Below, piece by piece: positions 1 to 42,627 of a stretch of 42,627 bases of DNA. Origin of the DNA: a virus; UHGV virus genome UHGV-0123675. One strand, given 5' to 3'. Both the position numbers and the translations under genes were made by a program. Numbering within the stretch: the first letter of the stretch is position 1; each line of letters begins with the position of its first letter. The notes beneath the pieces were generated by a model. It had not been told where the DNA came from and made no database searches. It saw only the letters and a program-made list of their open reading frames with translations.

Positions 1-49
1 AGTTAGATAATACATATTAAACCCATGGAAATTATATGGAATTTTAAGA

Positions 50-868
50 ATGGAAATTCATGTGCCTATGGAAGTTGTTGTAAGCGATGGTGAGGAGAGA
101 TTCACAGAACTTGACTTTTATTACGGTTCAAAAGCACTTGAAGGTACGTCAGAAATAATTACTGTTCTAACAAATACTATTCTGAATCGTGAGGTGGTTA
201 CTAAAATCCCATCTATAGAAGGCATAGCTGCATCATTTCGTACCAGTTATGAAGGTTCTTTTAGACAACGTTTTATGCTCAAAATCACTGGTGATCAACA
301 GCGACAAAACTACACCTCCATTGGAGAAGGGGCATTTTTAGATGTAATGTCCTATTATCTTACAAGACCGTTATTAACGCCTTATGTATTTGAATACAGA
401 AGAGCGGCTAGGATTGTAGAAGAACTTCAGCCAGATTATAGATCATTAATGAAAAGACTCTATGGCCCTTTATTAAAACTTCATAAACCAATTGAAGAAC
501 AGAATTATACTGTGGAATTGAAGCGTAGAAGGACAAATCTGGTACGCTATGATCATTCTACATTAGAAAACTTAATCATTGAACGTGCTGATGAGGAGAG
601 GATTATAATTGATGCTTCTATCACAAGATTTAATCGCTTGACTGGTACTGGAAGACTCATACTAGAAGAAGACTCGGATTCTGTAAGTTTTGAACCTGCA
701 TTTCTTTGGAGAGAATTTCCCGCAGAACAAAAACGAAAATTGTCACGAAACTTAGATGTAAATACGGATAATGAAAACTTTACTCGGTTACGTCTAGAGG
801 TGACAACTATCAGAAATTTTCTTGGTGAAATCAAAAAATATAGTCTACATCGAGTTATAATGGATTAA
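50..868 (+). CDS. Hypothetical protein (272 aa), AT-rich cargo gene next to integrase
   Basis: Long ORF with uniform coding character, tightly coupled (stop/start 1 nt apart) to downstream ORF; no motif recognised by eye. Confidence 0.5.
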   Translation: MEIHVPMEVVVSDGEERFTELDFYYGSKALEGTSEIITVLTNTILNREVVTKIPSIEGIAASFRTSYEGSFRQRFMLKITGDQQRQNYTSIGEGAFLDVMSYYLTRPLLTPYVFEYRRAARIVEELQPDYRSLMKRLYGPLLKLHKPIEEQNYTVELKRRRTNLVRYDHSTLENLIIERADEERIIIDASITRFNRLTGTGRLILEEDSDSVSFEPAFLWREFPAEQKRKLSRNLDVNTDNENFTRLRLEVTTIRNFLGEIKKYSLHRVIMD

Positions 869-869
869 T

Positions 870-1604
870 ATGATTAGATATTTCGCATTCTTGGTTATAT
901 TTATTACATGGTTAGTTTATTTCTCGAAATTCTATCCTTGGAATGGTTTTCCAATTGACAAGGCTGAGTGGGGAACATTTGGTGACTTCGTCGGTGGGGT
1001 GACGAACCCTATTTTAACTTTTTTTACAATGGTTATGCTAATTAAGTCTATTAATTTGCAAAAAGAGGCTAATGACAGCATTATCAAACAAAATTCGCAC
1101 ATGCATGAAGTATCTGAAAGGCAGAAGGAGATGGATGACTTACGTTCTTTTGAATCATCATTTTATAGCCTTGCAGAAGTTTCGAGAAGAGAGTTTGATG
1201 CACTCAAAATAGTTGGAAGAAATAAAAAGGTTTACTCAGCAGCAGATGCAGTGGTTTACTTAGAGGGATATTTATTGAATGCTTGCAAGTCAAAAACTTC
1301 TAAAGAATTAACTGAGCAATTTTCTAAATTTGATACAGACTCATCTATGGCAATTTTCTCTGCTGTTCGAAGCTTTTATATTTTGTTTAAATTTACAAAT
1401 GAATCATGCCCTGATAATCATAAAGAAAGATACTATGAGATTGCTAATTACATCATGCCAGTTAAGTTTCTTCATCTGGTATGCTTAGCATACGTATTTG
1501 GGAATTGGAAAATAACTAACGATTTTGAGCGCTATGGTTTTTTCAAACGTAAAGGCTTAGATAAATATGTTTTTAATTTCACATGTGTGAAAAATTATTA
1601 TTGA
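870..1604 (+). CDS. Hypothetical membrane-anchored protein (244 aa; two N-terminal hydrophobic helices)
   Basis: ORF begins 1 nt after previous stop; N-terminus FAFLVIFITWLVYF and ILTFFTMVMLI are transmembrane-like; rest soluble, no recognised motif. Confidence 0.5.
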   Translation: MIRYFAFLVIFITWLVYFSKFYPWNGFPIDKAEWGTFGDFVGGVTNPILTFFTMVMLIKSINLQKEANDSIIKQNSHMHEVSERQKEMDDLRSFESSFYSLAEVSRREFDALKIVGRNKKVYSAADAVVYLEGYLLNACKSKTSKELTEQFSKFDTDSSMAIFSAVRSFYILFKFTNESCPDNHKERYYEIANYIMPVKFLHLVCLAYVFGNWKITNDFERYGFFKRKGLDKYVFNFTCVKNYY

Positions 1605-1609
1605 TTTAT

Positions 1610-2740
1610 TCAGTCTAAAATTATTTTTTTCCATTCTTTACCTCGATCATCGTGATAGCCAGCAGTTTGGTTTGGTGATTTATGTCCCAGTAATTTTTGG
1701 GTATCGACTCCCTGTGCTTCATAAAGCCTTTCCGCCAAAGACCGCTGTTCGTGAAATGTAGCAGGTGTCCCATTACCCCAATCAATTCTGGCTAAATCTC
1801 GTGCTTTACTGAAATTCATTGTCAATGTATTGGATTTAACTTGTGTGCCGCGTTCAGCCTGTGAAGTCGTACGAAAAAAATGTACAAGGTAAGGGCTGAC
1901 TGCATAGTCACGGCAGCGAGCTACAACATCGCGCAGGCTCCAGTTGATTGCATTCAAACGCAGGGAAAGAGGAATAGCTATTTTGCTGCCGGTTTTTTCC
2001 TGTTCGATATGCAGATGATCATCCCATATATCGCTAAATTTCATTTTGGATATGTCACCAAGACGTTGCCCTGTCACAAGGGCAAGCAGCATTGCGTTCC
2101 CCATATACTGTTGTTTCTTATCTGCAATATCGAAAATCTTCTGCCACTCTTCGAGACTAAGTCGTTGTCTGGTAATCTTGCGCCTGGGCTGTTTAGTAGC
2201 AAGGGCAGGGTTGTGACCAGGCGGCACTTCACCGTAGTGTTGGGCCTCTTTGAATACATCGATCAGCACTGAACGAACAACTTGTGCCATTCTTGGTTGG
2301 CCTGCAGATAGATACTCTTCAAGAATTTGAGCAATATCCCTGACATCAACAGAAGATATCAGCTTCATTCCCGCACGTTCTTTCAAAAGTGCAACTGGCT
2401 TGGCTTTTTGTTTATATGTATTCTCCTTGATATCACCTGAAGCTAATCGTTCCTCCTGAATTTTCCAGTACCGCTCAAGCCAGGTAACTGTAGTAATTGC
2501 CTTACCCTTACTGGTAGCAATTCGATCGCTTATAGCCAGTACCTGTCTTGAACGCTGCTCAGCAAGTCTCGCGTTCGCTTCAGTAGCAATTGCTTTAGCC
2601 TCAGCTTCATCAGTACCTAGACTGTGAAATTTCCCAGTTACAGGGTGCTTGTACCTCCAATACACTTTATTGACCTTACGACTGTATAGTGGATATAGGT
2701 TAGGTATTGATACATTATTTTTACGTGGTCTCGCAGCCAT
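1610..2740 (-). CDS. int: Tyrosine recombinase / phage integrase, lambda Int family
   Basis: Translation resembles lambda Int (N-terminal PNLY...YWRY..TGK arm-binding region; C-terminal HELRSL..LLGH...Y catalytic region); start taken at internal Met (MAARPRK) giving the classic 20-bp overlap with xis; the longer ORF runs to 2806. Confidence 0.9.
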   Translation of the reverse strand: MAARPRKNNVSIPNLYPLYSRKVNKVYWRYKHPVTGKFHSLGTDEAEAKAIATEANARLAEQRSRQVLAISDRIATSKGKAITTVTWLERYWKIQEERLASGDIKENTYKQKAKPVALLKERAGMKLISSVDVRDIAQILEEYLSAGQPRMAQVVRSVLIDVFKEAQHYGEVPPGHNPALATKQPRRKITRQRLSLEEWQKIFDIADKKQQYMGNAMLLALVTGQRLGDISKMKFSDIWDDHLHIEQEKTGSKIAIPLSLRLNAINWSLRDVVARCRDYAVSPYLVHFFRTTSQAERGTQVKSNTLTMNFSKARDLARIDWGNGTPATFHEQRSLAERLYEAQGVDTQKLLGHKSPNQTAGYHDDRGKEWKKIILD

Positions 2741-2966
2741 CGCTGAGGATCCTTTGCAATTTTGGTGAATCAGATTTCTTGATAACCGGCGCAGCAAGTT
2801 CTCCAACCAATTCCGCGTCCTCTCTCACTCTCCATAGCCTACCTTGCTTCATGGCTGGTGGAGAAAAGAGGTTTTGCTTAGCGTAACGGCGCAATGTCGA
2901 GACGCTAGGTGGATTACTTCTGTATTTATCAGTTGCCCATTCTTCAAGAGTTAACATCTGAATCAT
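2721..2966 (-). CDS. xis: Excisionase (lambda Xis-like)
   Basis: MLTLEEWA...PPSVSTLRRYAKQNLFSPPAMKQGRLWRV resembles lambda Xis (MYLTLQEWNARQRRPRSLETVRRWVRECRIFPPPVKDGREY); overlaps int 5' end as in lambda; true start may be Met at 2957. Confidence 0.75.
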   Translation of the reverse strand: MIQMLTLEEWATDKYRSNPPSVSTLRRYAKQNLFSPPAMKQGRLWRVREDAELVGELAAPVIKKSDSPKLQRILSDGCETT

Positions 2967-3354
2967 GCGTCATTCTCCATATAACCCAGCTGCACCCGGG
3001 TTTTAACATCAAATATTCGTACGGTTCTCCGCTGCCGTGTATACCGCTACTTTCAGCAGATTAAATCAGTTAACTTTTCCTACGACCCACGGCTTAGAAG
3101 TCCGTTGCTCTCTTTAAGCTAACATCGCAACTGGAAGCGCGCTCCGGTAGCTTTGGATTAACGGCTGACCTTATAGGTTAAGGGACAGAACGCGCTTTCA
3201 TGTTGAGCCTTGAAAAAGGCTGGCGGTTACCGGACAAACGGGAAAACACCGGGCCGCCAGAACAGGGAAGTATTTGTTATTGCTTTGGCCTGCTTTTAAC
3301 CACATCAGGCGCGGTGGTATCTTGGTGTTCTCACACAGCCAAGAAGGAAATAGC

Positions 3355-3609
3355 ATGCGCGGAGTCGTCGTTCATCATGAGCACCGTATCGGTTATATCG
3401 TTATCCGTGACCCTATGGGGGAGTTCACAGTTGCAGAGCTGCTCGGCGGATATGATGTTGAGAAAGGGCACGTCATATCCGGAGATCTCCATAGCCTCGG
3501 AGGCGAAACATTTCTGAATGAGACTGAGGATGAAGATATTGATGTTTTCGTTCAGGGTTATGGCATGTCTGAACAGCAATCAATTCTTATGATCCGACGT
3601 ACTCGCTAA
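3355..3609 (+). CDS. Hypothetical small protein (84 aa)
   Basis: ORF with AAGGA RBS 7 nt upstream of ATG at 3355; overlaps 3' end of convergent minus-strand ORF; no recognised motif. Confidence 0.3.
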   Translation: MRGVVVHHEHRIGYIVIRDPMGEFTVAELLGGYDVEKGHVISGDLHSLGGETFLNETEDEDIDVFVQGYGMSEQQSILMIRRTR

Positions 3610-3781
3610 ACCACTTACGAAACAGAGCACAGCTTTTTAACGTTGCGTTGCAGTAATCAACGGATATGACCTGTCCTTCAGCAAATGGCTGTAGGAGCTC
3701 TTCGTTAATCTGCAACCCTCGTTTTGCAGCTTGTTCTAAGTCTGCAATCTTCTCGAAAAGCGCTTTCGCATTCTTATCCAC
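3587..3781 (-). CDS. Hypothetical small protein (64 aa) in leftward early operon
   Basis: ORF preceded on minus strand by GGAG RBS; lies between cI and xis where leftward early genes are expected. Confidence 0.4.
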   Translation of the reverse strand: MDKNAKALFEKIADLEQAAKRGLQINEELLQPFAEGQVISVDYCNATLKSCALFRKWFSEYVGS

Positions 3782-3876
3782 TGACTATCTCCACACTTAG
3801 GCGAATCATCCGATTATTCATACGCCACTGGCGGCTACTTCGTGGGCGTCCTGCCTGTTCGCTGTTGATGAACAAA

Positions 3877-3940
3877 ATCTAACTTAACTTAGCTTTTAGA
3901 TCAAGGAAAAAAACCAAACTATTCTTAGCTTGATGTTAAG
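3877..3940. promoter_or_regulatory. Putative left operator/promoter region (OL-like) with CTTAGC/TTAGAT-type inverted repeats
   Basis: ATCTAA-N13-TTAGAT inverted repeat at 3877-3901 and CTTAGC...GTTAAG at 3921-3940 share half-sites with the cI-cro intergenic palindromes. Confidence 0.35.
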
Positions 3941-3958
3941 AGAAAGGTTAGAGGTGGG

Positions 3959-4585
3959 TTAAAGCTCGTACTGAACGCCTTTGACAACGCCAATGATCAG
4001 GCAATTACCGTTAATTGAAATGTTTGGATAGCGTGGATTTAAGGGAACTAAGAACTTTTGAGGCCCATCGATGACAAGTTTTTTTATAGTAGCCTCGTTT
4101 GTCCCATCAAGCCTGGCTACGACTATCTTTCCATGAAGTGGCTCTGCATCTGGATCTACTATGACTGTTGCCCCTTCAGGGATTGTCGGGAGGCCATTAG
4201 GGTTTGTCATCGAATCACCTTTAACCTCCAATGCAAAGGAGCTATCCCCTATCCGGAGTGATGTCTCTATCCACTTATCTACTTCGCTGAAAACTTCTGC
4301 TGCTTTACATTCTGTAAACTGTCCAGCCTGAACCCAGGATATCACCGGAATCCTTTGCATCTTGGTTATCAGATTGCCTTCAAATTCAGTGCCATAAAGT
4401 ATGTAATCAATTGAGGTGTTGAAATACTTTGCAAGTTTAGCTAGTGACTCGCCGCCTGGCACATTAACGTCTTTTTCCCAATACCCAACCGCCACATCAC
4501 TAACACCGCAGAACTTACCCAGTTCTTTCTGCGAGGTTTTGGTTATGCGCCTGAGAGCTTTGATGCGCTGACCGACAGTTTCCAT
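3959..4585 (-). CDS. cI: CI-type prophage repressor (N-terminal HTH, C-terminal S24 LexA-like peptidase domain)
   Basis: N-terminus QRIKALRRITKTSQKELGKFCGVSDVAVGYWE is an XRE-type HTH; C-terminus contains GDSM..G and downstream Lys typical of self-cleaving S24 repressors; divergent from cro-like gene. Confidence 0.9.
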   Translation of the reverse strand: METVGQRIKALRRITKTSQKELGKFCGVSDVAVGYWEKDVNVPGGESLAKLAKYFNTSIDYILYGTEFEGNLITKMQRIPVISWVQAGQFTECKAAEVFSEVDKWIETSLRIGDSSFALEVKGDSMTNPNGLPTIPEGATVIVDPDAEPLHGKIVVARLDGTNEATIKKLVIDGPQKFLVPLNPRYPNISINGNCLIIGVVKGVQYEL

Positions 4586-13583: not shown

Positions 13584-14635
13584 ATGAAAAATACTGTAAA
13601 AATAAACAGTATTGAGTTAATCAACGCTGATAGCCTGCATTACGTCGCCACCCTCCCGGATAACTCTATTGATCTGATAGTTACGGATCCGCCGTACTTC
13701 AAAGTGAAGCCCAACGGCTGGGACAACCAATGGAAGGGGGACGAGGACTACTTACGCTGGCTTGATAGCTGTCTGGCTGAGTATGCTCGCGTTCTTAAAC
13801 CTGCTGGCAGCATTTACCTGTTTTGCGGTCACCGACTGGCCTCAGATATAGAGATTATGATGCGTGCCCGGTTCAACGTTTTGAATCACATCATTTGGGC
13901 AAAACCATCGGGCCGTTGGAATGGATGTAATAAAGAAAGCCTGCGCGCGTACTTTCCATCTACGGAACGGATTTTGTTTGCTGAGCACTATCTTGGGCCG
14001 TACACAGGTAAAGAGGATGTTTACGAAAGGAAAAGCACAGAGCTAAAGCAGCACATTATGACGCCGCTGATTGATTACTTCCGTAATGCCCGTGAATCAC
14101 TGGGTGTCAGCTCGAAAGAAATAGCTGAGGCAACCGGAAAAAAAAACATGGCGTCACACTGGTTTGGTGCAAGCCAATGGCAACTACCAAATGAAGTGGA
14201 CTATAGAAAATTGCAGGAACTGTTCACGCGGATCGCTATCGATAAGCACATTCAGTTGAAGCTTGAACATCCTCACCACCAGCTGGTGGCTACCTATCAG
14301 TCATTAAACCGCAAGTATTGAGAATTGCTGGAGGAATACAAAACCCTCCGGCGCTGCTTCTCTGTTTCCGCTCTTGTTCCGTATACCGACGTATGGACGC
14401 ATAAGCCTGTTCAGTTTTATCCGGGCAAACATCCATGCGAAAAACCTGCCGACATGCTGAAGCAGATCATTAGCGCCAGCAGCAGACCAGGGGATATCGT
14501 TGCCGATTTCTTTATGGGCTCTGGTTCAACTGTGAAAGCTGCAATAGAACTTGGCCGTCGGCGATCGGGGTAGAACTGGAAGCTGACAGATTTATTCAGA
14601 CCACCGAAGAGGTGGAAAAACTGAGCAAAACATAA
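13584..14635 (+). pseudogene. DNA methyltransferase (DPPY motif IV ... FxGSG motif I, N4/N6 beta-class type) disrupted by an in-frame TGA and a downstream frameshift
   Basis: ORF 13584-14321 (LIVTDPPYF) and ORF 14325-14573 (HPCEKP..DIVADFFMGSGST) are in the same frame separated by TGA at 14319-14321; the expected C-terminus (IGVELEADRFIQTTEEVEKLSKT) continues in another frame from about 14564. Confidence 0.65.
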
Positions 14636-31616: not shown

Positions 31617-32735
31617 ATGGCAGATCAGACAGCGATGCCGGAATATGCTCCGGCTTTCAGCATTCAGGCCGAAGGGAAAGATATAACCCGGGTGCTGCAA
31701 CAATGCCTGAGTGAACTGACCCTGACGGATTATGGTGGGGCAACAGCGAAAGCCGATGAACTGAAAATCAGCCTCATCTCTGAAACGCTGGCGCTTCCCA
31801 CTAAAGGTGCCCGGCTTCGGGTTGCTCTGGGATTCAATGACCAACTGATCGATAAAGGCTGGTTTGTTGTCAGTGGTGTCTCGAGCAGCGGCCCGCCGAG
31901 GCGTATTGAGCTTTATGCGACCGCCGCGCCGATGAACGCCCAGAAACAACCCGGAGATGTGACAAGCCAGAAAACCCGGAGCTGGGATAACCTTCGCCTT
32001 GCCGATATTGTCAAAACAGTGGCCACCGATAACGGACTTATTCCCCGCGTGGCCGACGCGCTCAAAGATATTCATATCAATCACATCGATCAGGTGGCGG
32101 AATCCGATGCCAACCTGCTCGCAAGGCTTGCACGTGACTACAACGCAGTGAGCAAACCATCGGGAGGCTACTGGCTTTTTTTACAGCAGGGGGCCACGGC
32201 AACGGCTTCAGGAAAACAGACTGGCGGGATCACCATCACACCGGATGAAGTATCAAACTGGTCCTACAGTGAAGGTGAGCGGGGGAGTTCGACGGGGAAA
32301 GCTGCGGGGAGCGGAGGTAAAGCCAAAGAGAAAATCGGCGTGCGTTATTACGACGAGGAGGACGGCACGACAAAGACCTCCTCTGTTGAACATGATGGCC
32401 CGGCGATGACCAATCCCTATACCCAGTCGGAGAAAAACACCGCCGAGCAACAGGCAAACTCCAGGAAAACACAGGCGAAGCGTAACGAGCAGAAAATGAC
32501 GCTCACGGGGCCATGTCGCCCTAAACATGTTCCGCTGACAGCAGAAGCAGGTGTGTCGACTTCCGGTTTTGGTTCCCGTGAGGATCGGGCCTGGGTGGTT
32601 GAGTCTCTGGTCTTTTCTCTGACGTCAGCAGGATTCAGCTACACCTACAACCTTGTCGTGGATATTCGTAAACCCGCAGCGGCTTCGAAAAAATCAGAAA
32701 AGCAGGACAAAAAAGGCCCGTCCTACTTCGGTTAA
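31617..32735 (+). CDS. Tail protein D (P2 gpD-like late control/baseplate hub protein)
   Basis: 372-aa protein following U and X genes, size and position of gpD. Confidence 0.75.
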   Translation: MADQTAMPEYAPAFSIQAEGKDITRVLQQCLSELTLTDYGGATAKADELKISLISETLALPTKGARLRVALGFNDQLIDKGWFVVSGVSSSGPPRRIELYATAAPMNAQKQPGDVTSQKTRSWDNLRLADIVKTVATDNGLIPRVADALKDIHINHIDQVAESDANLLARLARDYNAVSKPSGGYWLFLQQGATATASGKQTGGITITPDEVSNWSYSEGERGSSTGKAAGSGGKAKEKIGVRYYDEEDGTTKTSSVEHDGPAMTNPYTQSEKNTAEQQANSRKTQAKRNEQKMTLTGPCRPKHVPLTAEAGVSTSGFGSREDRAWVVESLVFSLTSAGFSYTYNLVVDIRKPAAASKKSEKQDKKGPSYFG

Positions 32736-36998: not shown

Positions 36999-37856
36999 TT
37001 ATTTACCTATAAGAGAGACCTTTAATCTTCTTAATAAAGTAATTACATCTTTCCTTCCGAATAGTTTAAACAGATTAAACCAGCGGTTCTTACCCAGGTA
37101 ATTTAGTTTTATTAATTTAGGGTTGTAATGATAGCACATTATAAAAAAACCCTGATCGTCATCAACTATATTATTTCTGAGTGTTTTTATTTGGCACTGA
37201 CAAACCAGTTTGTAAAACTCTTTCCATTTCTTTTGTGTTGCTACAATTGCCCCACCAATAATATAGGAACGATTGTTAATCATGTGGTCAAAAACCTGAT
37301 GGATAGTTTTGACGGCCAAGCCTTTTTTAACTGTAAAGAAATTTACTTTGTTGCGGTCAAATGGATAGTCCCATCGAGATAACCCTCTGGTTACGTCTGC
37401 ACTGCGACAGTAACCAAAGTCAACCCATGCAACCATATCATCATTCACAAGATTTAACTCTATAGCTCTGTTTACAAAATATGTTTTCAGATTGCAAACC
37501 AGTGCATAGTCTGGGGACCAGTATTCGGGGTTTATCAACTGGCGAGTTTCAAGTTTGCTTATGAACTCGTTATCTTTTTGAATCCGCGCAATTATTTTTT
37601 TGATGTGTTGAAATTTTTTATTAATATCTAAAGCCACTACAACAGTATTTTTCCCATTTCTGATTGCTTCAATTTTTGGTTTAAGTTCACTGGATGTGAA
37701 AATGACCATGTCATTATCCAATTCAGACAGATTTTCAAAGTACTGAATATAGGTATCAGCTGTTCTCTCTAAGTGAGGAGAGAAACCTTTATTACTCGTC
37801 CAGTCTCCTCGTCCTATATCGAAAAATGCTGTAACAATGGTAATAGATGAGTTCAT
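36999..37856 (-). CDS. HtrL/YibB-family-like protein (285 aa; tentative), AT-rich cargo gene
   Basis: N-terminus SITIVTAFFDIGRGDW resembles the conserved start of HtrL/YibB-family proteins; AT-rich, minus strand downstream of tail fibre genes. Confidence 0.5.
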   Translation of the reverse strand: MNSSITIVTAFFDIGRGDWTSNKGFSPHLERTADTYIQYFENLSELDNDMVIFTSSELKPKIEAIRNGKNTVVVALDINKKFQHIKKIIARIQKDNEFISKLETRQLINPEYWSPDYALVCNLKTYFVNRAIELNLVNDDMVAWVDFGYCRSADVTRGLSRWDYPFDRNKVNFFTVKKGLAVKTIHQVFDHMINNRSYIIGGAIVATQKKWKEFYKLVCQCQIKTLRNNIVDDDQGFFIMCYHYNPKLIKLNYLGKNRWFNLFKLFGRKDVITLLRRLKVSLIGK

Positions 37857-38342
37857 TTTTAAGCAATCCGTGTTTTATACCTATCCAATAACTACAAGAA
37901 TGTTGAATACATATTTTTTTTGATATCAGTCATATGGAAACATTCTATCAGTATCAACATGAGGCGGGAAGCATCATGTGATATTAAAACTTATAAGCAA
38001 CGGATGTACAAAATAACTGGTTGTGGCAAGGGATTATTTAATGGTGAATAATTTTCATTGGTATTATTTTTCTTGAAATTGTCGCTTTGTTCTAAGATAG
38101 GATAACAATAGGTTGCTGAATCATATCAAGCAGTGTTCCTTTGCCGATATTTTGAGTAATAACGGAAATCATTAAAGATGACCTGACTGGCCAATTGATG
38201 GTGAACCGTAACGAGAGTTGCCGCAACCACACCGTATGCAAGAGCATGATTGCGGCCGACTGGCGAACGTTCGATAGTGCGAGTATTGAATGATTGCCAG
38301 TCACGGCGGATTGTACTTAAGCAATATGACGGTTCAAGGCGT

Positions 38343-38585
38343 TTAATCTGAAACCAGCCACATTTCAGCCTCTTCAAACATTTCCTGAACAGTTCGGCTT
38401 ATCTGTTCCTTCTCATGCTTGCTGGCGTCAGTGTTGATCGCCGGCAGTGTCATCATCGGTTTAACCCGGACATCAGCATCGGGGAAGATCCGGTGAACCC
38501 TCTTGGTCAGTTCGCCCAAAATGATATCTTTTGCACCGGGCAGACCATCAAAATTCCTTTTGTCATAAACGAGTTCCACGAACAT
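38343..38585 (-). CDS. dinI: DinI-family DNA-damage-inducible protein
   Basis: 80-aa protein; ELTKRVHRIFPDADVRV ... EQISRTVQEMFEEAEMWLVSD parallels E. coli DinI (ELSRRIQYAFPD ... QRISEILQETWESADDWFVSE). Confidence 0.85.
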   Translation of the reverse strand: MFVELVYDKRNFDGLPGAKDIILGELTKRVHRIFPDADVRVKPMMTLPAINTDASKHEKEQISRTVQEMFEEAEMWLVSD

Positions 38586-38600
38586 TGATTATTGCTCCTT

Positions 38601-38620
38601 TACTGGATGGATATACAGTA
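38601..38620. promoter_or_regulatory. LexA-box-like operator (SOS box) between divergent dinI-like and UmuD'-like operons
   Basis: TACTGGATGGATATACAGTA matches the consensus TACTGTATATATATACAGTA at 17 of 20 positions (CTG-N10-CAG spacing), overlapping a second palindrome ACAGTAT..ATACTGT and a TATACT -10-like hexamer. Confidence 0.6.
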
Positions 38621-38659
38621 TTTATACTGTGTTTTTATCCGGTGTTCAAGAGGGGTTAA

Positions 38660-38902
38660 ATGATGCCACGACGTAGCGATATTGAAATAGCCTGGTATGC
38701 TTCGATACAGCAAGAACCGAATGGCCGGAAGACTGTCACCACACAGCGATTTGTCCAGGAACTGAGCAAGGTTAACTGGAACTGGACGATGAAGCAGGCC
38801 AACGAATGGATCGAGTGGTATGTGACAACATTCCGCGATGTATCAACGCAGGAAGGCGAGAACCGTACTTTTCAGTTGTTCAATCCAAACGGAGGACTGT
38901 AG
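38660..38902 (+). CDS. Hypothetical protein (80 aa) co-operonic with UmuD'-like gene
   Basis: ORF with AGAGGGG RBS; stop 2 nt before the UmuD'-like start. Confidence 0.45.
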   Translation: MMPRRSDIEIAWYASIQQEPNGRKTVTTQRFVQELSKVNWNWTMKQANEWIEWYVTTFRDVSTQEGENRTFQLFNPNGGL

Positions 38903-38904
38903 CC

Positions 38905-39294
38905 ATGGGCTTTCCTTCACCTGCCAGTGATTACGTTGAAAAAAGGATTTCGCTCGATCAGCAGCTTATAAGCCAGCCATCAGCAACTTATTTCATGCGG
39001 GCATCACGTTCACATTTCAGGGAAGGAATACTACAGGGGGCGCTGCTTGTTGTGGATGCGTCACTTACTGCCTGTGATGGCTCATTGCTGATATGTGTAA
39101 TTGACGGGGAATTCAGGATCAAGAGATATCGAAAGCATCCTCAACCCCACCTAATTAATCTGGAGAACGGGAGAAGGGAGGCGCTGCCAGCAGATGATGA
39201 CGGTTACAGTTCTGCACCCGCTATATTCGGGGTGATCACGTACATCATTAATGATGCCAGGAACGCGGAGTTTGATGACTGCCCGGTGATGTGA
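38905..39294 (+). CDS. UmuD'-like protein (S24 peptidase fold, lacks the N-terminal propeptide; HumD-like)
   Basis: GFPSPASDYVEKRISLDQQLISQPSATYF ... DGEF.IK parallels E. coli UmuD residues 25 onward ([29 protein letters not shown]); start ATG 38905 with GGAGGA RBS falls exactly at the UmuD autocleavage site; the longer ORF from 38806 overlaps the upstream gene. Confidence 0.8.
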   Translation: MGFPSPASDYVEKRISLDQQLISQPSATYFMRASRSHFREGILQGALLVVDASLTACDGSLLICVIDGEFRIKRYRKHPQPHLINLENGRREALPADDDGYSSAPAIFGVITYIINDARNAEFDDCPVM

Positions 39295-39384
39295 ATAGCT
39301 GAAACTTTACGGTAAAGCCGATGTTTTGTGTCGGGGTTTTTCCCCGATAATTCCCCATTGCTTCCCCGTTCAGAGAACAGGCAT

Positions 39385-39412
39385 AAAAAACCAGCCGTAA
39401 CAGGCTGGTTCT
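39385..39412. terminator. Bidirectional rho-independent terminator (after UmuD'-like gene; on the minus strand directly 3' of the tRNA fragment)
   Basis: AAAAAA-CCAGCC-gtaaca-GGCTGG-TTCTT. Confidence 0.5.
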
Positions 39413-39423
39413 TAAGGGATTTT

Positions 39424-39470
39424 TGGTCGGCACGAGAGGATTTGAACCTCCGACCCCCGACACCCCATGA
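39424..39470 (-). other. tRNA-Pro-like 3' fragment (anticodon-arm to CCA end only), probable attachment-site relic
   Basis: Minus-strand sequence ...TCATGGGGTGTCGGGGGTCGGAGGTTCAAATCCTCTCGTGCCGACCA has a tRNA-Pro-type T-arm and acceptor 3' strand ending CCA; no complementary 5' acceptor strand or D-arm upstream, so not an intact tRNA. Confidence 0.65.
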
Positions 39471-39560
39471 TGGCAAGCTACCGTCTTAAGAGCTATTCTG
39501 CACCAGAAGCTGACGTTGCTTACATAGTGTTATGCTTGTTTATGGGAGCAAGTCACCGAT

Positions 39561-39938
39561 TTAGGCTTTTATTTTGCGATGAACACCAGCCATGAGGCTA
39601 TGCTTCTCTTCTAAATCTACGTCAGATGTCCATACAGTGTTATTGCGGCTCCTGCGAACAGAGGCAACGATCTTACGCTTAATTTCTTTTGGAGACATGT
39701 TCTTGGCTTGGCCAGCAAGAACATAGTCTCTGGATGCTTTCTCTACTGTTTTCAGTAAATTATCAGTGAGGAGTTGTCCGGCGTTACGACATCTGCGAGT
39801 GTTAAACCGCACAGCGAATCTCAGCACATCCTGATAATCAGAGCGGACAATTTCAGTTTTGAGCATCTGTTGCACACGTTTTTGGGCAGTTGTCGAGTTG
39901 CCCAAGTGTTTAACTGCCGCTAGCTTACTTGGTCTCAT
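39561..39938 (-). CDS. Hypothetical basic protein (125 aa)
   Basis: Minus-strand ORF in AT-rich island; Lys/Arg-rich; no recognised motif. Confidence 0.5.
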   Translation of the reverse strand: MRPSKLAAVKHLGNSTTAQKRVQQMLKTEIVRSDYQDVLRFAVRFNTRRCRNAGQLLTDNLLKTVEKASRDYVLAGQAKNMSPKEIKRKIVASVRRSRNNTVWTSDVDLEEKHSLMAGVHRKIKA

Positions 39939-40004
39939 ATAACCCTCCTAACATTCTTCTCATAAGTATTTTATCATAACTGTTCACAAAATACTCAGTG
40001 CGTT

Positions 40005-40586
40005 CTATCTGATCAGTTTAGTTAACAGCTTAGCCCGGGGATTATTATTCCGCTTTACTCGAGCTTTGTCTGCAGCGTTTAGGAAATAGCCAAACGATTG
40101 ATATCTATTGATAAGTTCCTTATCAGGCCGACTTATATTGACCTGGCTTATACCATATGCATCAGCGAAGCTCTCTGAAATAATCAGGGCAATCGGCATG
40201 ACGAAACCTTTCAGGGGATGGTCATTGGGATTTCCTTCGAGGTAGCGAAGGGTTATGCAGAGCCGATTTTTTGAACGCCTCCCAAGCATCAACCCGCAAA
40301 GAAATTCGCGGCATCGAATACTTACATCAATGCGCTTGGTTTGGTTACTCCTTTCCTGGCTCCAGTTGAAGTCAATAAATTGACGTTTTTCTGGCAGACG
40401 CCAACTACTACTAGCCTCTTCTGAATCTATATAATAAATATGACCCAATTTGATTTCATCAACCGGAAGTTGGCTACTAAAGTTCTCAGTAATGGAAACC
40501 ATAGCATCCGCAATTGCCATGGAATAGATTAACTCATGATTTAGCTCTTCACCGGCAGAAAGGATGCCAGCTTGTACCGACGCCAT
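40005..40586 (-). CDS. Hypothetical protein (193 aa)
   Basis: Minus-strand ORF 66 nt upstream of the 125-aa gene; no recognised motif. Confidence 0.5.
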   Translation of the reverse strand: MASVQAGILSAGEELNHELIYSMAIADAMVSITENFSSQLPVDEIKLGHIYYIDSEEASSSWRLPEKRQFIDFNWSQERSNQTKRIDVSIRCREFLCGLMLGRRSKNRLCITLRYLEGNPNDHPLKGFVMPIALIISESFADAYGISQVNISRPDKELINRYQSFGYFLNAADKARVKRNNNPRAKLLTKLIR

Positions 40587-40823
40587 ATCAACTCCCTTTT
40601 TATTATTGTTACAATAACCTGCAACTTAAAACATTTTATTGATGTATAAAGCAAACACTGATGTCAGTTCCTCGCCCAGTGCTGGCAGTAGTATTTGATT
40701 GTGTGCTGCACGAGAAAACTGTCAGATCATACCTAAACTAATACATATGTATTAACTCTTATTGGATCTGACACTGGTACGGCACAGGGCTAAAACTGAT
40801 CTTACAGGCACATCTATCCAATT

Positions 40824-41918
40824 TCAGTCATTAAGGTACTTAGTATTCCCTTCACAAAATCCACAGCCAACCAGTCCACTCATTTCACTAACTGATGTAG
40901 AGCTTCCACCACAGTAGCCGCAAGTACTGATTGAATCATGAAAAACAAGGCAGTTCGTGCACAGATATCCACCTCCGTACTCACATACCGTCTCATAGCC
41001 GTCACAATCGGAACAACTTGCTGGAAGGCCTGAATAACTAATATCTTCTGGTTTGCCGACCCATTCATCCAGCAAATCGTATCTGGATGATGAGTAATTG
41101 CAGTTGTTGCAATTGAAATTCGTTTCACCGGTAGCGTTCAGATCCTGCCTTACTCCGCAACTAGGGCATGTAACTTCGACATAAGGATCAGATCTGCAGC
41201 CGCAGACTAAGCAATTTGCTTCGTGAAGAGTATTTCCTCTCTCCTCATTGATGGATATATCAACGGCAGCATTTTTACTGCAAGCACGACAGTTTGAGAT
41301 CGTGCATCCCTGTTTTCTGAGATCATCGAGTGTAGGCTGTAAATAACGAAATTTTGCATTAGCATAAAACAACGAACTTTCGAGCATACGATCCTCATCT
41401 GATGCCAACTTTGAGTTTAGAGGTTCTCCAAAAAGATAGAACCACTGATCACGCATAAAACGGTTAAGCGCAAACCAAGCGTCAGCCTGTTCATCAAGGA
41501 TTGTCTTCACCTGAGTGTCGGTAAAGTCGGAATGATAAAAATGAACCACACGGTTGCGGTGGTCTTTAACTTTTTTGAATACAGCGATGGTTTCTTTCGG
41601 TAGGGGATTTTGAAGTACATCACCTAACCGCTGACAGGTTTCATCGTATGTGACCGACTGGAAATCACCGGCAAGGTATTTTGCGCGCTCAATTTTCCTC
41701 CCGGAGCACACCAGACTCCAGTGTTCGTGTACTAGCGGCACTTTCAGCATGATCTCTACCGCGGTCCAGAAACTGACAATCGAAAATTTTGGCTTGGAAG
41801 CCTCTAGTTCTTCGCGTGCCTTATCTAGAAACTCCAGACCGTTGTTGATCAGAGCTTGAACGTCTTTAGATACAAACGATTCGTCATTGTACTGGAAGCT
41901 GTATTTTTTATTTTTCAT
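40824..41918 (-). CDS. Hypothetical protein (364 aa) with HEPN-like RNxxxH motif and Cys-rich (multi-CxxC) C-terminal region
   Basis: N-terminal helical region contains KDHRNRVVHFYH (R-N-x3-H); C-terminal ~150 aa contains at least ten CxxC/CxC pairs suggestive of several zinc ribbons. Confidence 0.55.
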   Translation of the reverse strand: MKNKKYSFQYNDESFVSKDVQALINNGLEFLDKAREELEASKPKFSIVSFWTAVEIMLKVPLVHEHWSLVCSGRKIERAKYLAGDFQSVTYDETCQRLGDVLQNPLPKETIAVFKKVKDHRNRVVHFYHSDFTDTQVKTILDEQADAWFALNRFMRDQWFYLFGEPLNSKLASDEDRMLESSLFYANAKFRYLQPTLDDLRKQGCTISNCRACSKNAAVDISINEERGNTLHEANCLVCGCRSDPYVEVTCPSCGVRQDLNATGETNFNCNNCNYSSSRYDLLDEWVGKPEDISYSGLPASCSDCDGYETVCEYGGGYLCTNCLVFHDSISTCGYCGGSSTSVSEMSGLVGCGFCEGNTKYLND

Positions 41919-42409
41919 GGCTATATAACCTGTTTATTCATCCGGTACCCATTGTAAATGCCCTACTTAAACGGAGCACTAATTTTTAGAAATCTTCCAG
42001 CTGGCTGATTATATCTTGGACTAGCCCCATTTGACTAATACACCTGTGTGCTGCGTCCATCAGTTGAACTCACAGCTCCTAGCGGACATTCGCAACATTA
42101 AATTCTTCACCATTTAGATTGTCTAATAGTGATAACCTTTTGAATAATCAAGAGTGACAATATTAAATTATTGGCGAAAAGATGATGTAACGTATTGATA
42201 AAGCATGATAACACGCATGATTTAAAATCCCTTTATCGTGAAAGGGCTGATAGGTACAGGCACTTGTTTTTGCCCTATATAACGGTTATCAAAATCCAAA
42301 AACACACATTGATAATCAATCGGTTAGGGGAATGCTGCAAACTAGTTGATTTACAATAAAATTATAGAATTATTTTTATTTATCATGTGGTTGTATATGA
42401 AGCATCTAA

Positions 42410-42577
42410 CTACTGCTGCGCCACATGGGTTGGGTCGAAGCGGCTGACCTGATCGTTAAAGGTATGGAAGGCGCGATCAACGCCAAGACCGTAACCTATG
42501 ACTTCGAACGTCTGATGGATGGCGCTAAACTGCTGAAATGTTCAGAGTTTGGTGACGCGATCATCGAAAACATGTAA
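42410..42577 (+). pseudogene. icd: 3' fragment of isocitrate dehydrogenase gene (icd), attachment-site duplicate
   Basis: Translation [54 protein letters not shown]-stop matches the Icd C-terminus; an in-frame TAA lies immediately upstream and the preceding DNA is unrelated AT-rich sequence. Confidence 0.8.
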
Positions 42578-42599
42578 TCCAGATTCTGGGTTGTGTGAG

Positions 42600-42627
42600 A
42601 ACGGGAGCCGAGAGGTTCCCGTTTTTT
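42600..42627 (+). terminator. Rho-independent terminator downstream of the icd 3' end
   Basis: AACGGGA-gccgagaggt-TCCCGTT followed by TTTTT. Confidence 0.6.

Follow-up and report, generated by a model that had tools for sequence, protein, structure and literature searches.

Why should a prophage carry a gene for a UmuD' protein that needs no processing, placed behind what looks like an SOS operator, with no umuC polymerase gene after it? This question is raised by positions 38343-39294 of the virus genome UHGV-0123675, a stretch of 42,627 nucleotides that we call the window. A preliminary description, made from the sequence alone, had recognised there an SOS-type module with a dinI-like gene, a LexA-box-like operator and a UmuD'-like gene. 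Direct reading of positions 37800-40000, together with the open reading frame (ORF) listing, found every element where it had been placed or a few bases off; the module brings together a homologue of DinI, an operator for LexA and a UmuD'/HumD-type protein that is truncated from the outset, with umuC absent. The dinI-family gene (38343-38585) lies on the minus strand and, as had been claimed, faces away from a two-gene operon on the plus strand, consisting of orf80 (38660-38902) and then the UmuD'-like gene, humD (38905-39294). The cassette is situated in the late arm, 3' of the tail-fibre genes.

The locus is a dinI/HumD accessory cassette, probably under LexA control, of a kind already catalogued in enterobacterial prophages. 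Its core is known, because a curated HumD model, a LexA site annotated in phage P1 and an annotated cassette in phage HK140 all exist, and the HumD and DinI genes of such cassettes are already named by current annotation pipelines; as one further copy of a catalogued prophage cassette, its significance is small. The only unexplored part is orf80, which is found systematically together with SOS boxes and genes of polymerase V. We give a probability of roughly 0.8 to the reading that this is a LexA-repressed, bidirectional moron cassette in a Citrobacter prophage, supplying a DinI-type modulator, an optional winged-helix factor and a ready-made UmuD'. RecA-dependent cleavage of UmuD normally delays mutagenic synthesis; HumD would skip that cleavage, and the cassette is an example of SOS-wired genes with which temperate phages bypass a host checkpoint, a matter that bears on stress-induced mutagenesis and on how antibiotic resistance evolves in lysogens.

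The HumD gene, the LexA operator and dinI

The humD product is a 129-residue HumD-family protein, a UmuD' that is truncated genetically. Over its full length (positions 1-129/129) it matches the NCBIfam equivalog NF051876 ('HumD family translesion DNA polymerase') with 224.3 bits against a cut-off of 120, and the suggested likeness to P1 HumD was borne out by an identity of 72.9% over 129/129 residues to HumD of both P1 and P7 (tblastn against phage genomes); N15 gp26 follows at 70%, and phiKO2 and HK140 at 67-68%. The model for the autoproteolytic UmuD subunit, NF007621, gives 92.8 bits, below its cut-off of 110, and the protein has neither the N-terminal arm nor the cleavage site. Alignment also upheld the claim that the protein begins exactly at the position of UmuD autocleavage: in a phmmer search of PDB sequences, Gly2 pairs with residue 1 of UmuD' (1UMU, E=2.5e-23), and it aligns with Gly25 of full-length UmuD (8GMT).

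The true start of humD is the ATG at 38905, 2 nucleotides past the orf80 stop codon, and its Shine-Dalgarno sequence GGAGGA (38891-38896, plus strand) lies within the last codons of orf80, 8 nucleotides before that ATG. We define as close relatives 80 IMG/VR loci encoding HumD at at least 90% identity; the M-GF.SP start is kept in 80/80 of them and in P1, N15 and HK140. The ORF start called mechanically, at 38806, would add 33 residues and so give a protein of 162 residues with an N-terminal arm. We reject it: the Shine-Dalgarno sequence precedes the ATG at 38905, the extension lies wholly inside the conserved orf80, in another frame, and in the 35 of the 80 relatives that are without orf80 it is impossible, the promoter and LexA box there standing 63 nucleotides upstream of the same M-GFPSP start. 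An upstream in-frame start that restores the arm, which the preliminary description had left as a way to be wrong, is thus not credible. At its other end, HumD runs about 10-13 residues past the end of UmuD, with a conserved extension N-D-A-R-x-x-E-F-D-D-C-P-V (39255-39294, HumD residues 117-129) that is found in P1, N15, HK140 and the window; shorter HumD-like proteins of 104-107 residues are without it.

Replacement of UmuD' is known only for the HumD of phage P1. The GenBank entry of P1 (AF234173) describes HumD with the words 'functionally complements E. coli UmuD'' and marks a site for LexA binding 'in the regulatory region of lxr and humD'; according to the passage on HumD in PMC7092418, the P1 protein substitutes for UmuD' in UmuC-dependent SOS mutagenesis. 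The study of HumD by McLenigan et al. 1999 (J Bacteriol 181:7005) is cited here through PMC7092418 and PMC4713147.

The catalytic segment of UmuD, GDSM, had been said to read RSHF in this protein, and that is one of two possible registers. UmuD Ser60 falls opposite His37 in the phmmer alignment and in a 10-sequence MAFFT alignment, and opposite Ser36 in a 5-sequence MAFFT alignment and by hmmalign (posterior probabilities 0.5-0.9), where the profile was built from self-cleaving relatives only (UmuD, ImpA, the UmuDs of two plasmids and the CI of the prophage itself) and so places Ser36 in the nucleophile column. The register hinges on the placement of a one-residue gap; the four alignments split two against two, and the motif is either SRSH or RSHF. 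In the Ser36 column P1 has Ser, N15 and HK140 have Thr and an IncX3 homologue has Tyr. Lys73, the equivalent of UmuD Lys97, is missing from the IncX3 copy alone. Neither register retains the canonical G-x-S-M motif. Self-cleavage had been judged probably neither possible nor needed; that it is not needed stands, since there is no cleavage site, whereas calling it impossible goes too far, given the ambiguous register and the retained Lys73.

Between the two divergent transcription units lies a LexA operator (SOS box), TACTGGATGGATATACAGTA (38601-38620), common to both predicted promoters. It agrees with the consensus TACTGTATATATATACAGTA at 17 of 20 positions, forms a CTG-N10-CAG palindrome and is separated from the dinI start codon by 15 bases. 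Two sites with at most three mismatches to the consensus occur in the 42.6-kb window, and none in 100 dinucleotide-preserving shuffles. With a position weight matrix (PWM) made from 18 E. coli LexA sites, TACTGGATGGATATACAGTA is the top 20-mer of the window; its 24.9 bits exceed the best score of 20 shuffles (19.6) and fall inside the range of 6-26 bits covered by the leave-one-out scores of the E. coli sites themselves. The box is at the same position in 77/80 close relatives, with CTG and CAG invariant and the centre variable, and HK140, P1 and N15 have a sequence-diverged but good box at the same place. The proposed palindrome therefore withstood consensus, shuffle and PWM tests, and its closeness to the consensus, its overlap with predicted promoters and its conservation in orthologous regions mark it as a LexA operator.

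Both promoters are inferred from sequence. A promoter-like site for orf80-humD (38599-38628, plus strand; 9/12 in a consensus scan) has a -35 hexamer TTTACT at 38599-38604, an 18-nucleotide spacer and a -10 hexamer TATACT at 38623-38628. Its counterpart for dinI (38621-38649, minus strand), with -35 TTGAAC at 38649-38644, a 17-nucleotide spacer and -10 TATAAA at 38626-38621, was read by eye; the scan tool missed it, its -10 hexamer being without the final T. In the predicted rightward promoter, both the -35 hexamer and the spacer lie under the LexA box; the box begins directly downstream of the predicted dinI promoter, of which it would cover the +1 region. The two predicted -10 hexamers, TATAAA (minus strand) and TATACT (plus strand), overlap at 38621-38628, and on this prediction only one RNA polymerase at a time could therefore occupy the region. 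There is also a weak second LexA-like box, TACTGTGTTTTTATCCGGTG (38625-38644, 15.0 bits by PWM), whose right half-site is degenerate (CGG for CAG); an improved version, ending ...ATCCAGTA, is present at the same place in about 12/80 relatives.

The leftward gene (38343-38585, minus strand) encodes an 80-residue prophage paralogue, of the MsgA/'virulence protein' type, of the RecA-filament modulator DinI. Its description as dinI-like was confirmed by Pfam PF06183 (E=1.2e-19; 70.8 bits against a cut-off of 24.2), by a match to phrog_189 ('RecA filament binding protein DinI') and by alignment to E. coli DinI (1GHH), in which the acidic C-terminal helix is kept, ISRTVQEMFEEAEMWLVSD aligning with ISEILQETWESADDWFVSE. 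The equivalog for chromosomal dinI, NF007893, gives 39.1 bits, so far under its cut-off of 111 that we regard the gene as a prophage paralogue and not as the chromosomal orthologue. LexA control of prophage dinI homologues has been shown experimentally in Salmonella, in the Gifsy phages (PMC3121763; PMC8072944).

Among the 80 close relatives, 39 have dinI, the box and orf80-humD; 35 have dinI, the box and humD with no orf80; and six are without a detectable dinI. Alignment of orf80-less with orf80-bearing loci shows orf80 to be a clean cassette-type indel. The three-gene cassette is found also in C. braakii and C. portucalensis, and Citrobacter braakii ATCC 51113 and C. portucalensis A60 encode the orf80 protein with 100% identity, which places the window in a genome of the Citrobacter freundii complex. 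Copies with 91% identity in E. coli bear the annotations 'DinI family protein', 'S24 family peptidase' or 'HumD family translesion DNA polymerase'. Pairwise Nei-Gojobori estimates of the ratio of nonsynonymous to synonymous substitution rates (dN/dS) against the window allele are 0.09 for dinI (62 alleles), 0.10 for orf80 (35 alleles) and 0.09 for humD (71 distinct intact alleles); values of about 0.1 in all three indicate purifying selection and thus working genes rather than relics.

Comparison with known systems places the cassette between several of them. The lxr-humD locus of P1 (AF234173) likewise encodes a 129-residue protein with an M-GFPSP start at the UmuD cleavage position and a C-terminal extension ...NDARSGEFDDCPV common to both proteins, has a LexA box just upstream in a divergent intergenic region, and is without an adjacent umuC; in contrast to the window, its divergent gene lxr encodes a 190-residue protein with no Pfam domain that is not DinI-like, orf80 is missing, and phd-doc follows humD in what is a plasmid-prophage, where the window has an attachment-site (att) region. 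The closest architecture is that of HK140, in which gp26 (DinI) reads leftward from a LexA-type box and gp27 (hypothetical) and gp28 (UmuD-like) read rightward, after the tail-fibre gene and immediately before attP, a position to which that of the window cassette corresponds; HK225, mEp390 and Klebsiella/Enterobacter prophages group with it. HK140 and the window are 64% identical in DinI, 39% in orf80 and 68% in HumD, and the HK140 box differs (TACTGTATTCATATACAGTC). We found no experimental studies of HK140-type cassettes in the literature.

With umuDC, mucAB and samAB the window has in common the S24 fold of a dimeric accessory subunit of a Y-family polymerase, an upstream LexA box and the Lys97 equivalent, but it lacks their 24-residue N-terminal arm, Cys/Ala-Gly site and GxSM motif, and umuC is absent from its operon. 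The impCAB operon of IncI-type plasmids also couples a DinI-family protein (ImpC) to a UmuD-family protein (ImpA), there under SOS control as is predicted for the window, and also has a small first gene (about 80 residues) ahead of the UmuD-like gene; however, all of its three genes point the same way, it encodes a full-length, cleavable ImpA and it includes the polymerase (ImpB), whereas in the window dinI is divergent, the small co-directional gene encodes a winged-helix and not a DinI-like protein, and the polymerase is missing. The dinI-antirepressor-irsA operons of the Gifsy phages and Tum of phage 186 (PMC3121763) resemble the window in the LexA box directly upstream of a prophage dinI homologue, and have small SOS-induced proteins alongside. 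They differ in being co-directional, in lying in the early region and in inducing phages whose repressors are not cleaved (PMC3121763); the window encodes a self-cleaving repressor of CI type, and its cassette is in the late arm, at a position which in HK140 adjoins attP.

orf80 and the genes of polymerase V

The first gene of the rightward operon, orf80 (38660-38902, plus strand), encodes a predicted winged-helix protein of 80 residues, or of 79 from the second ATG at 38663, which is the likelier start because homologues begin MPR. Neither Pfam nor NCBIfam has a family for it, and it falls in phrog_3893, whose label gives no function; many homologues are labelled 'DNA polymerase V' by NCBI, and our literature search found no published function for orf80 or its family. 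The family is a small one of Enterobacterales: an exhaustive hidden Markov model (HMM) search of 1.84 billion representative proteins returned only 174 members, nearly all of about 80 residues. Assignment to the winged-helix class is supported by the predicted H1-S1-H2-H3-S2-wing-S3 topology and by structural matches to winged-helix domains; a structure search of BFVD with orf80 returned its own homologue only.

The association of orf80 with polymerase V genes comes from a sample of 52 species-level loci, from Citrobacter, Klebsiella, Raoultella, Enterobacter, Pantoea, Erwinia and others. In 47/52 of these a LexA box stands 29-42 nucleotides upstream of the orf80 start, one box being a perfect consensus, and in about 30/52 the next gene is a HumD-type S24 gene with the M-GF.SP start. 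The orf80 stop codon and the humD ATG are 0-2 nucleotides apart, or overlap, at every locus examined. At three loci (L123, L127 and L130) orf80 is closely followed by a complete umuDC operon. A check of phage context found that the tail-fibre and integrase proteins of the window match 9/52 of the orf80 loci.

Two Pantoea loci (L121, positions 2950-4502, and L122; Pantoea sp. B9002 and P. allii) show another arrangement, in which the LexA box-orf80 unit is joined to a 420-residue umuC through an overlapping stop and start (GGCATGTGATGTTT). No umuD-like gene lies in between, the winged-helix protein holding the usual umuD slot; the same overlapping junction recurs at a further locus (L135), there with a UmuC-like ORF of only 77 residues. 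Rare in-frame fusions are found in metagenomes, of orf80 to HumD (P0194, P0152, P0245, P0254 and P0256) and of orf80 to UmuC (P0166); these could be genuine or could be frameshift, sequencing or assembly artefacts, the latter being possible because the genes are only 0-2 nucleotides apart.

IncX3 plasmids carry a pair of orf80 (65% identity) and HumD-like (47% identity) genes between ISKox3 and IS26. In pHNAH695 and its many relatives (L086, positions 2259-2857) the equivalent of Lys97 is Met and the C-terminus of the HumD-type protein is cut by IS26, and the region upstream of the orf80 homologue has been replaced by ISKox3. The 'truncated umuD' of the IncX3 literature is of the pre-truncated HumD type, with an orf80 partner gene.

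From the conserved synteny we argue that orf80 would act in the polymerase V pathway, and it is probably an optional polymerase V-associated factor. A more specific role, as an SOS-induced subunit, accessory or regulatory, that would be new to the polymerase V pathway of Enterobacterales, is a tentative suggestion that we would not back at even odds. If orf80 does modulate polymerase V, it would be a new component in a very well studied system; in any case it is a useful lead, being small, LexA-boxed and tied to HumD or UmuC in phages, in plasmids (including blaNDM-carrying IncX3 backbones) and in chromosomes. The preliminary description had offered the 80-residue protein as a possible partner of the UmuD'-like one: this is plausible from the synteny, but an obligatory partnership fails, because orf80 is absent from about half of the closest relatives (35/80) and is therefore optional and dispensable for HumD.

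One lead of low probability concerns the invariant C-terminal tail of orf80, RTF[QMK][LV][FY]NPNGG-stop. Its TFQLF-like motif stands six residues before the start of HumD, just as TFPLF stands six residues before Gly25 in UmuD. We take TFPLF to be the beta-clamp-binding motif of the UmuD arm, and orf80 might then supply in trans something given by the arm that is missing from HumD. Against this idea, the Gln position varies (Q/M/K) and the tail segment is the predicted strand 3 of the fold.

A separate observation concerns the other end of the protein. The first 37 residues of orf80 (38660-38770) recur as the N-terminus of a 101-residue protein annotated as a tail fibre assembly protein, with PF02413 forming its C-terminal part. 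This is encoded in phage PhiR29_1 (L085, positions 2510-2815) and about 15 other E. coli phages, with 76% amino acid and about 90% DNA identity, and is a recombination chimera at the same genome position.

Possible roles of the cassette in the SOS response

We propose that in the undamaged cell LexA, bound to one strong operator, would block both promoters, the rightward one at its -35 hexamer and spacer and the leftward one around +1. On DNA damage, RecA-stimulated self-cleavage of LexA would derepress both promoters. The leftward product, a DinI-family protein, would by homology bind in the groove of the RecA filament and tune its co-protease activity; the rightward products would be the translationally coupled winged-helix protein of 79 or 80 residues and HumD. 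Since HumD is truncated at the level of the gene, at the UmuD cleavage site, it would require no RecA-mediated processing, and, as has been shown for P1 HumD, it would form a dimer and load on UmuC, which would have to come from the host chromosome or from a plasmid. Translesion synthesis of the polymerase V type would then begin earlier in the SOS response. The winged-helix protein would most likely be an optional accessory or regulatory factor of this polymerase V pathway.

Several observations weigh against this proposal or against parts of it. LexA binding, promoters and transcript ends are predicted from similarity to consensus sequences. A tblastn search of the whole window with three UmuC/ImpB proteins gave a best E of 0.3, upholding the earlier statement that no UmuC-like polymerase follows, and HumD would have to find its polymerase elsewhere. 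About 12/52 of the orf80 loci have neither an S24 gene nor umuC next to orf80, and in the 35 close relatives from which orf80 is cleanly absent the same promoter, operator and Shine-Dalgarno sequence serve humD directly. The fold matches of orf80 are to generic winged-helix domains with low scores, and the helix expected to recognise DNA (residues 44-54, KQANEWIEWY) has an acidic and hydrophobic rather than a basic character.

The strongest competitor, although an unlikely one, is that HumD is a phage modulator, forming heterodimers with host UmuD or UmuD', or UmuD'2C-like complexes that inhibit RecA-mediated recombination. HumD and the DinI-like protein would together damp or re-time the SOS response, including RecA-stimulated cleavage of CI, with the prophage thus setting its own threshold for induction. 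The cassette has no polymerase gene, one operator serves dinI and humD in most relatives, and the resident repressor (3959-4585, minus strand) has a helix-turn-helix (HTH) and a complete Peptidase_S24 domain with GDSM and Lys intact, and hence would depend on activated RecA, all of which suits such a modulator. The record that P1 HumD, at 73% identity, complements UmuD' in mutagenesis speaks for a polymerase subunit instead; the sequence itself fits either role, and the two are not mutually exclusive. That same repressor bears on a rather less probable explanation, that orf80 is a LexA-controlled antirepressor or transcription factor like GfoA/GftA, Tum of 186 or AntC of N15, with humD merely co-riding. 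Small LexA-controlled antirepressor genes beside dinI homologues are established in Gifsy and 186-type phages (PMC3121763), and orf80 is small, immediately follows a LexA box and has a predicted fold that many DNA-binding regulators share. However, an antirepressor of this kind is required for induction where its partner repressor does not cleave itself, and here the complete S24 domain of the repressor means that none is needed; in addition, orf80 is missing from 35/80 near-identical prophages, occurs also on IncX3 plasmids and stop/start-coupled to umuC in Pantoea, and has an acidic and hydrophobic helix where DNA would be recognised.

Finally, the UmuD'-like ORF could be the functionless remnant of a decaying umuDC operon, a umuD pseudogene truncated at its 5' end after the loss of umuC. 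The missing umuC and the lost GxSM motif are as such decay would leave them, and some relatives are indeed pseudogenised or cut by insertion sequences (a frameshifted copy in E. coli SC476; the IS26-truncated IncX3 copy). We nevertheless consider this highly improbable: the 71 distinct intact alleles with a dN/dS of about 0.09, the invariant M-GF.SP start with its own Shine-Dalgarno sequence, the existence of a curated equivalog family and the functional P1 orthologue all argue for a gene in use. We thus prefer the cassette of modulator, optional winged-helix factor and ready-made UmuD' described above.

Downstream region and other parts of the window

The preliminary description had ended the operon at a terminator followed by a tRNA relic, and both terminator-like hairpins and the relic are present downstream of humD. 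The hairpins (39309-39349, plus strand) comprise a scan match at 39318-39334 followed by GGTTTTTCCC, with an RNA fold of -18.6 kcal/mol (z = -2.95); they are no textbook intrinsic terminator. Beyond them a strong minus-strand hairpin with a U6 run after it (39389-39410; -16.1 kcal/mol, z = -4.43) is an intrinsic terminator that belongs with the tRNA fragment, and may be bidirectional too. The tRNA fragment itself (39424-39473, minus strand) is an att-type relic of about 50 nucleotides from the 3' end of a tRNA-Pro-like gene, presumably the proL-like tRNA-Pro(GGG). ARAGORN found no intact tRNA at the fragment, and there was no Rfam match in 38000-40000. The fragment matches all 5426 E. coli genomes, and it recurs close to the ends of lambdoid phage genomes, that of Gifsy-2 among them. 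A comparison of the left (1-3200) with the right end (39250-42627) of the window for att repeats gave nothing longer than 12 nucleotides, and the prophage boundaries are therefore not set by the window.

Elsewhere in the window, a second strong LexA-like box, TACTGTAAAAATAAACAGTA (13592-13611), is a perfect CTGT-N8-ACAG palindrome of 24.0 bits by PWM. It begins 8 nucleotides inside a DNA methyltransferase ORF (13584-14321, phrog_6025) that is preceded by about 400 nucleotides of non-coding sequence, and this locus may be an SOS-controlled phage methyltransferase or may reflect a misplaced gene start. A third, marginal sequence, TACTGGCTTTTTTTACAGCA (32169-32188, within a tail-region ORF), is probably due to chance, because its 17.4 bits are under the shuffle maximum of 19.6.

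On the side of the cassette towards the tail genes, an HtrL/YibB-family gene (36999-37856, minus strand; PF09612, E=9e-86) is a reverse-oriented piece of cargo, with the tail fibre assembly gene on one side and the dinI cassette on the other. On the far side, between the tRNA-Pro fragment and a fragment of icd, the stretch 39561-42577 holds three minus-strand ORFs of 125, 193 and 364 residues with no family assignment, the longest of which has Cys-rich, zinc-ribbon-like repeats. The icd fragment (42425-42577) comprises the 50 codons at the 3' end of the gene, encoding the C-terminus of isocitrate dehydrogenase, as at the attachment site of e14 and phage 21.

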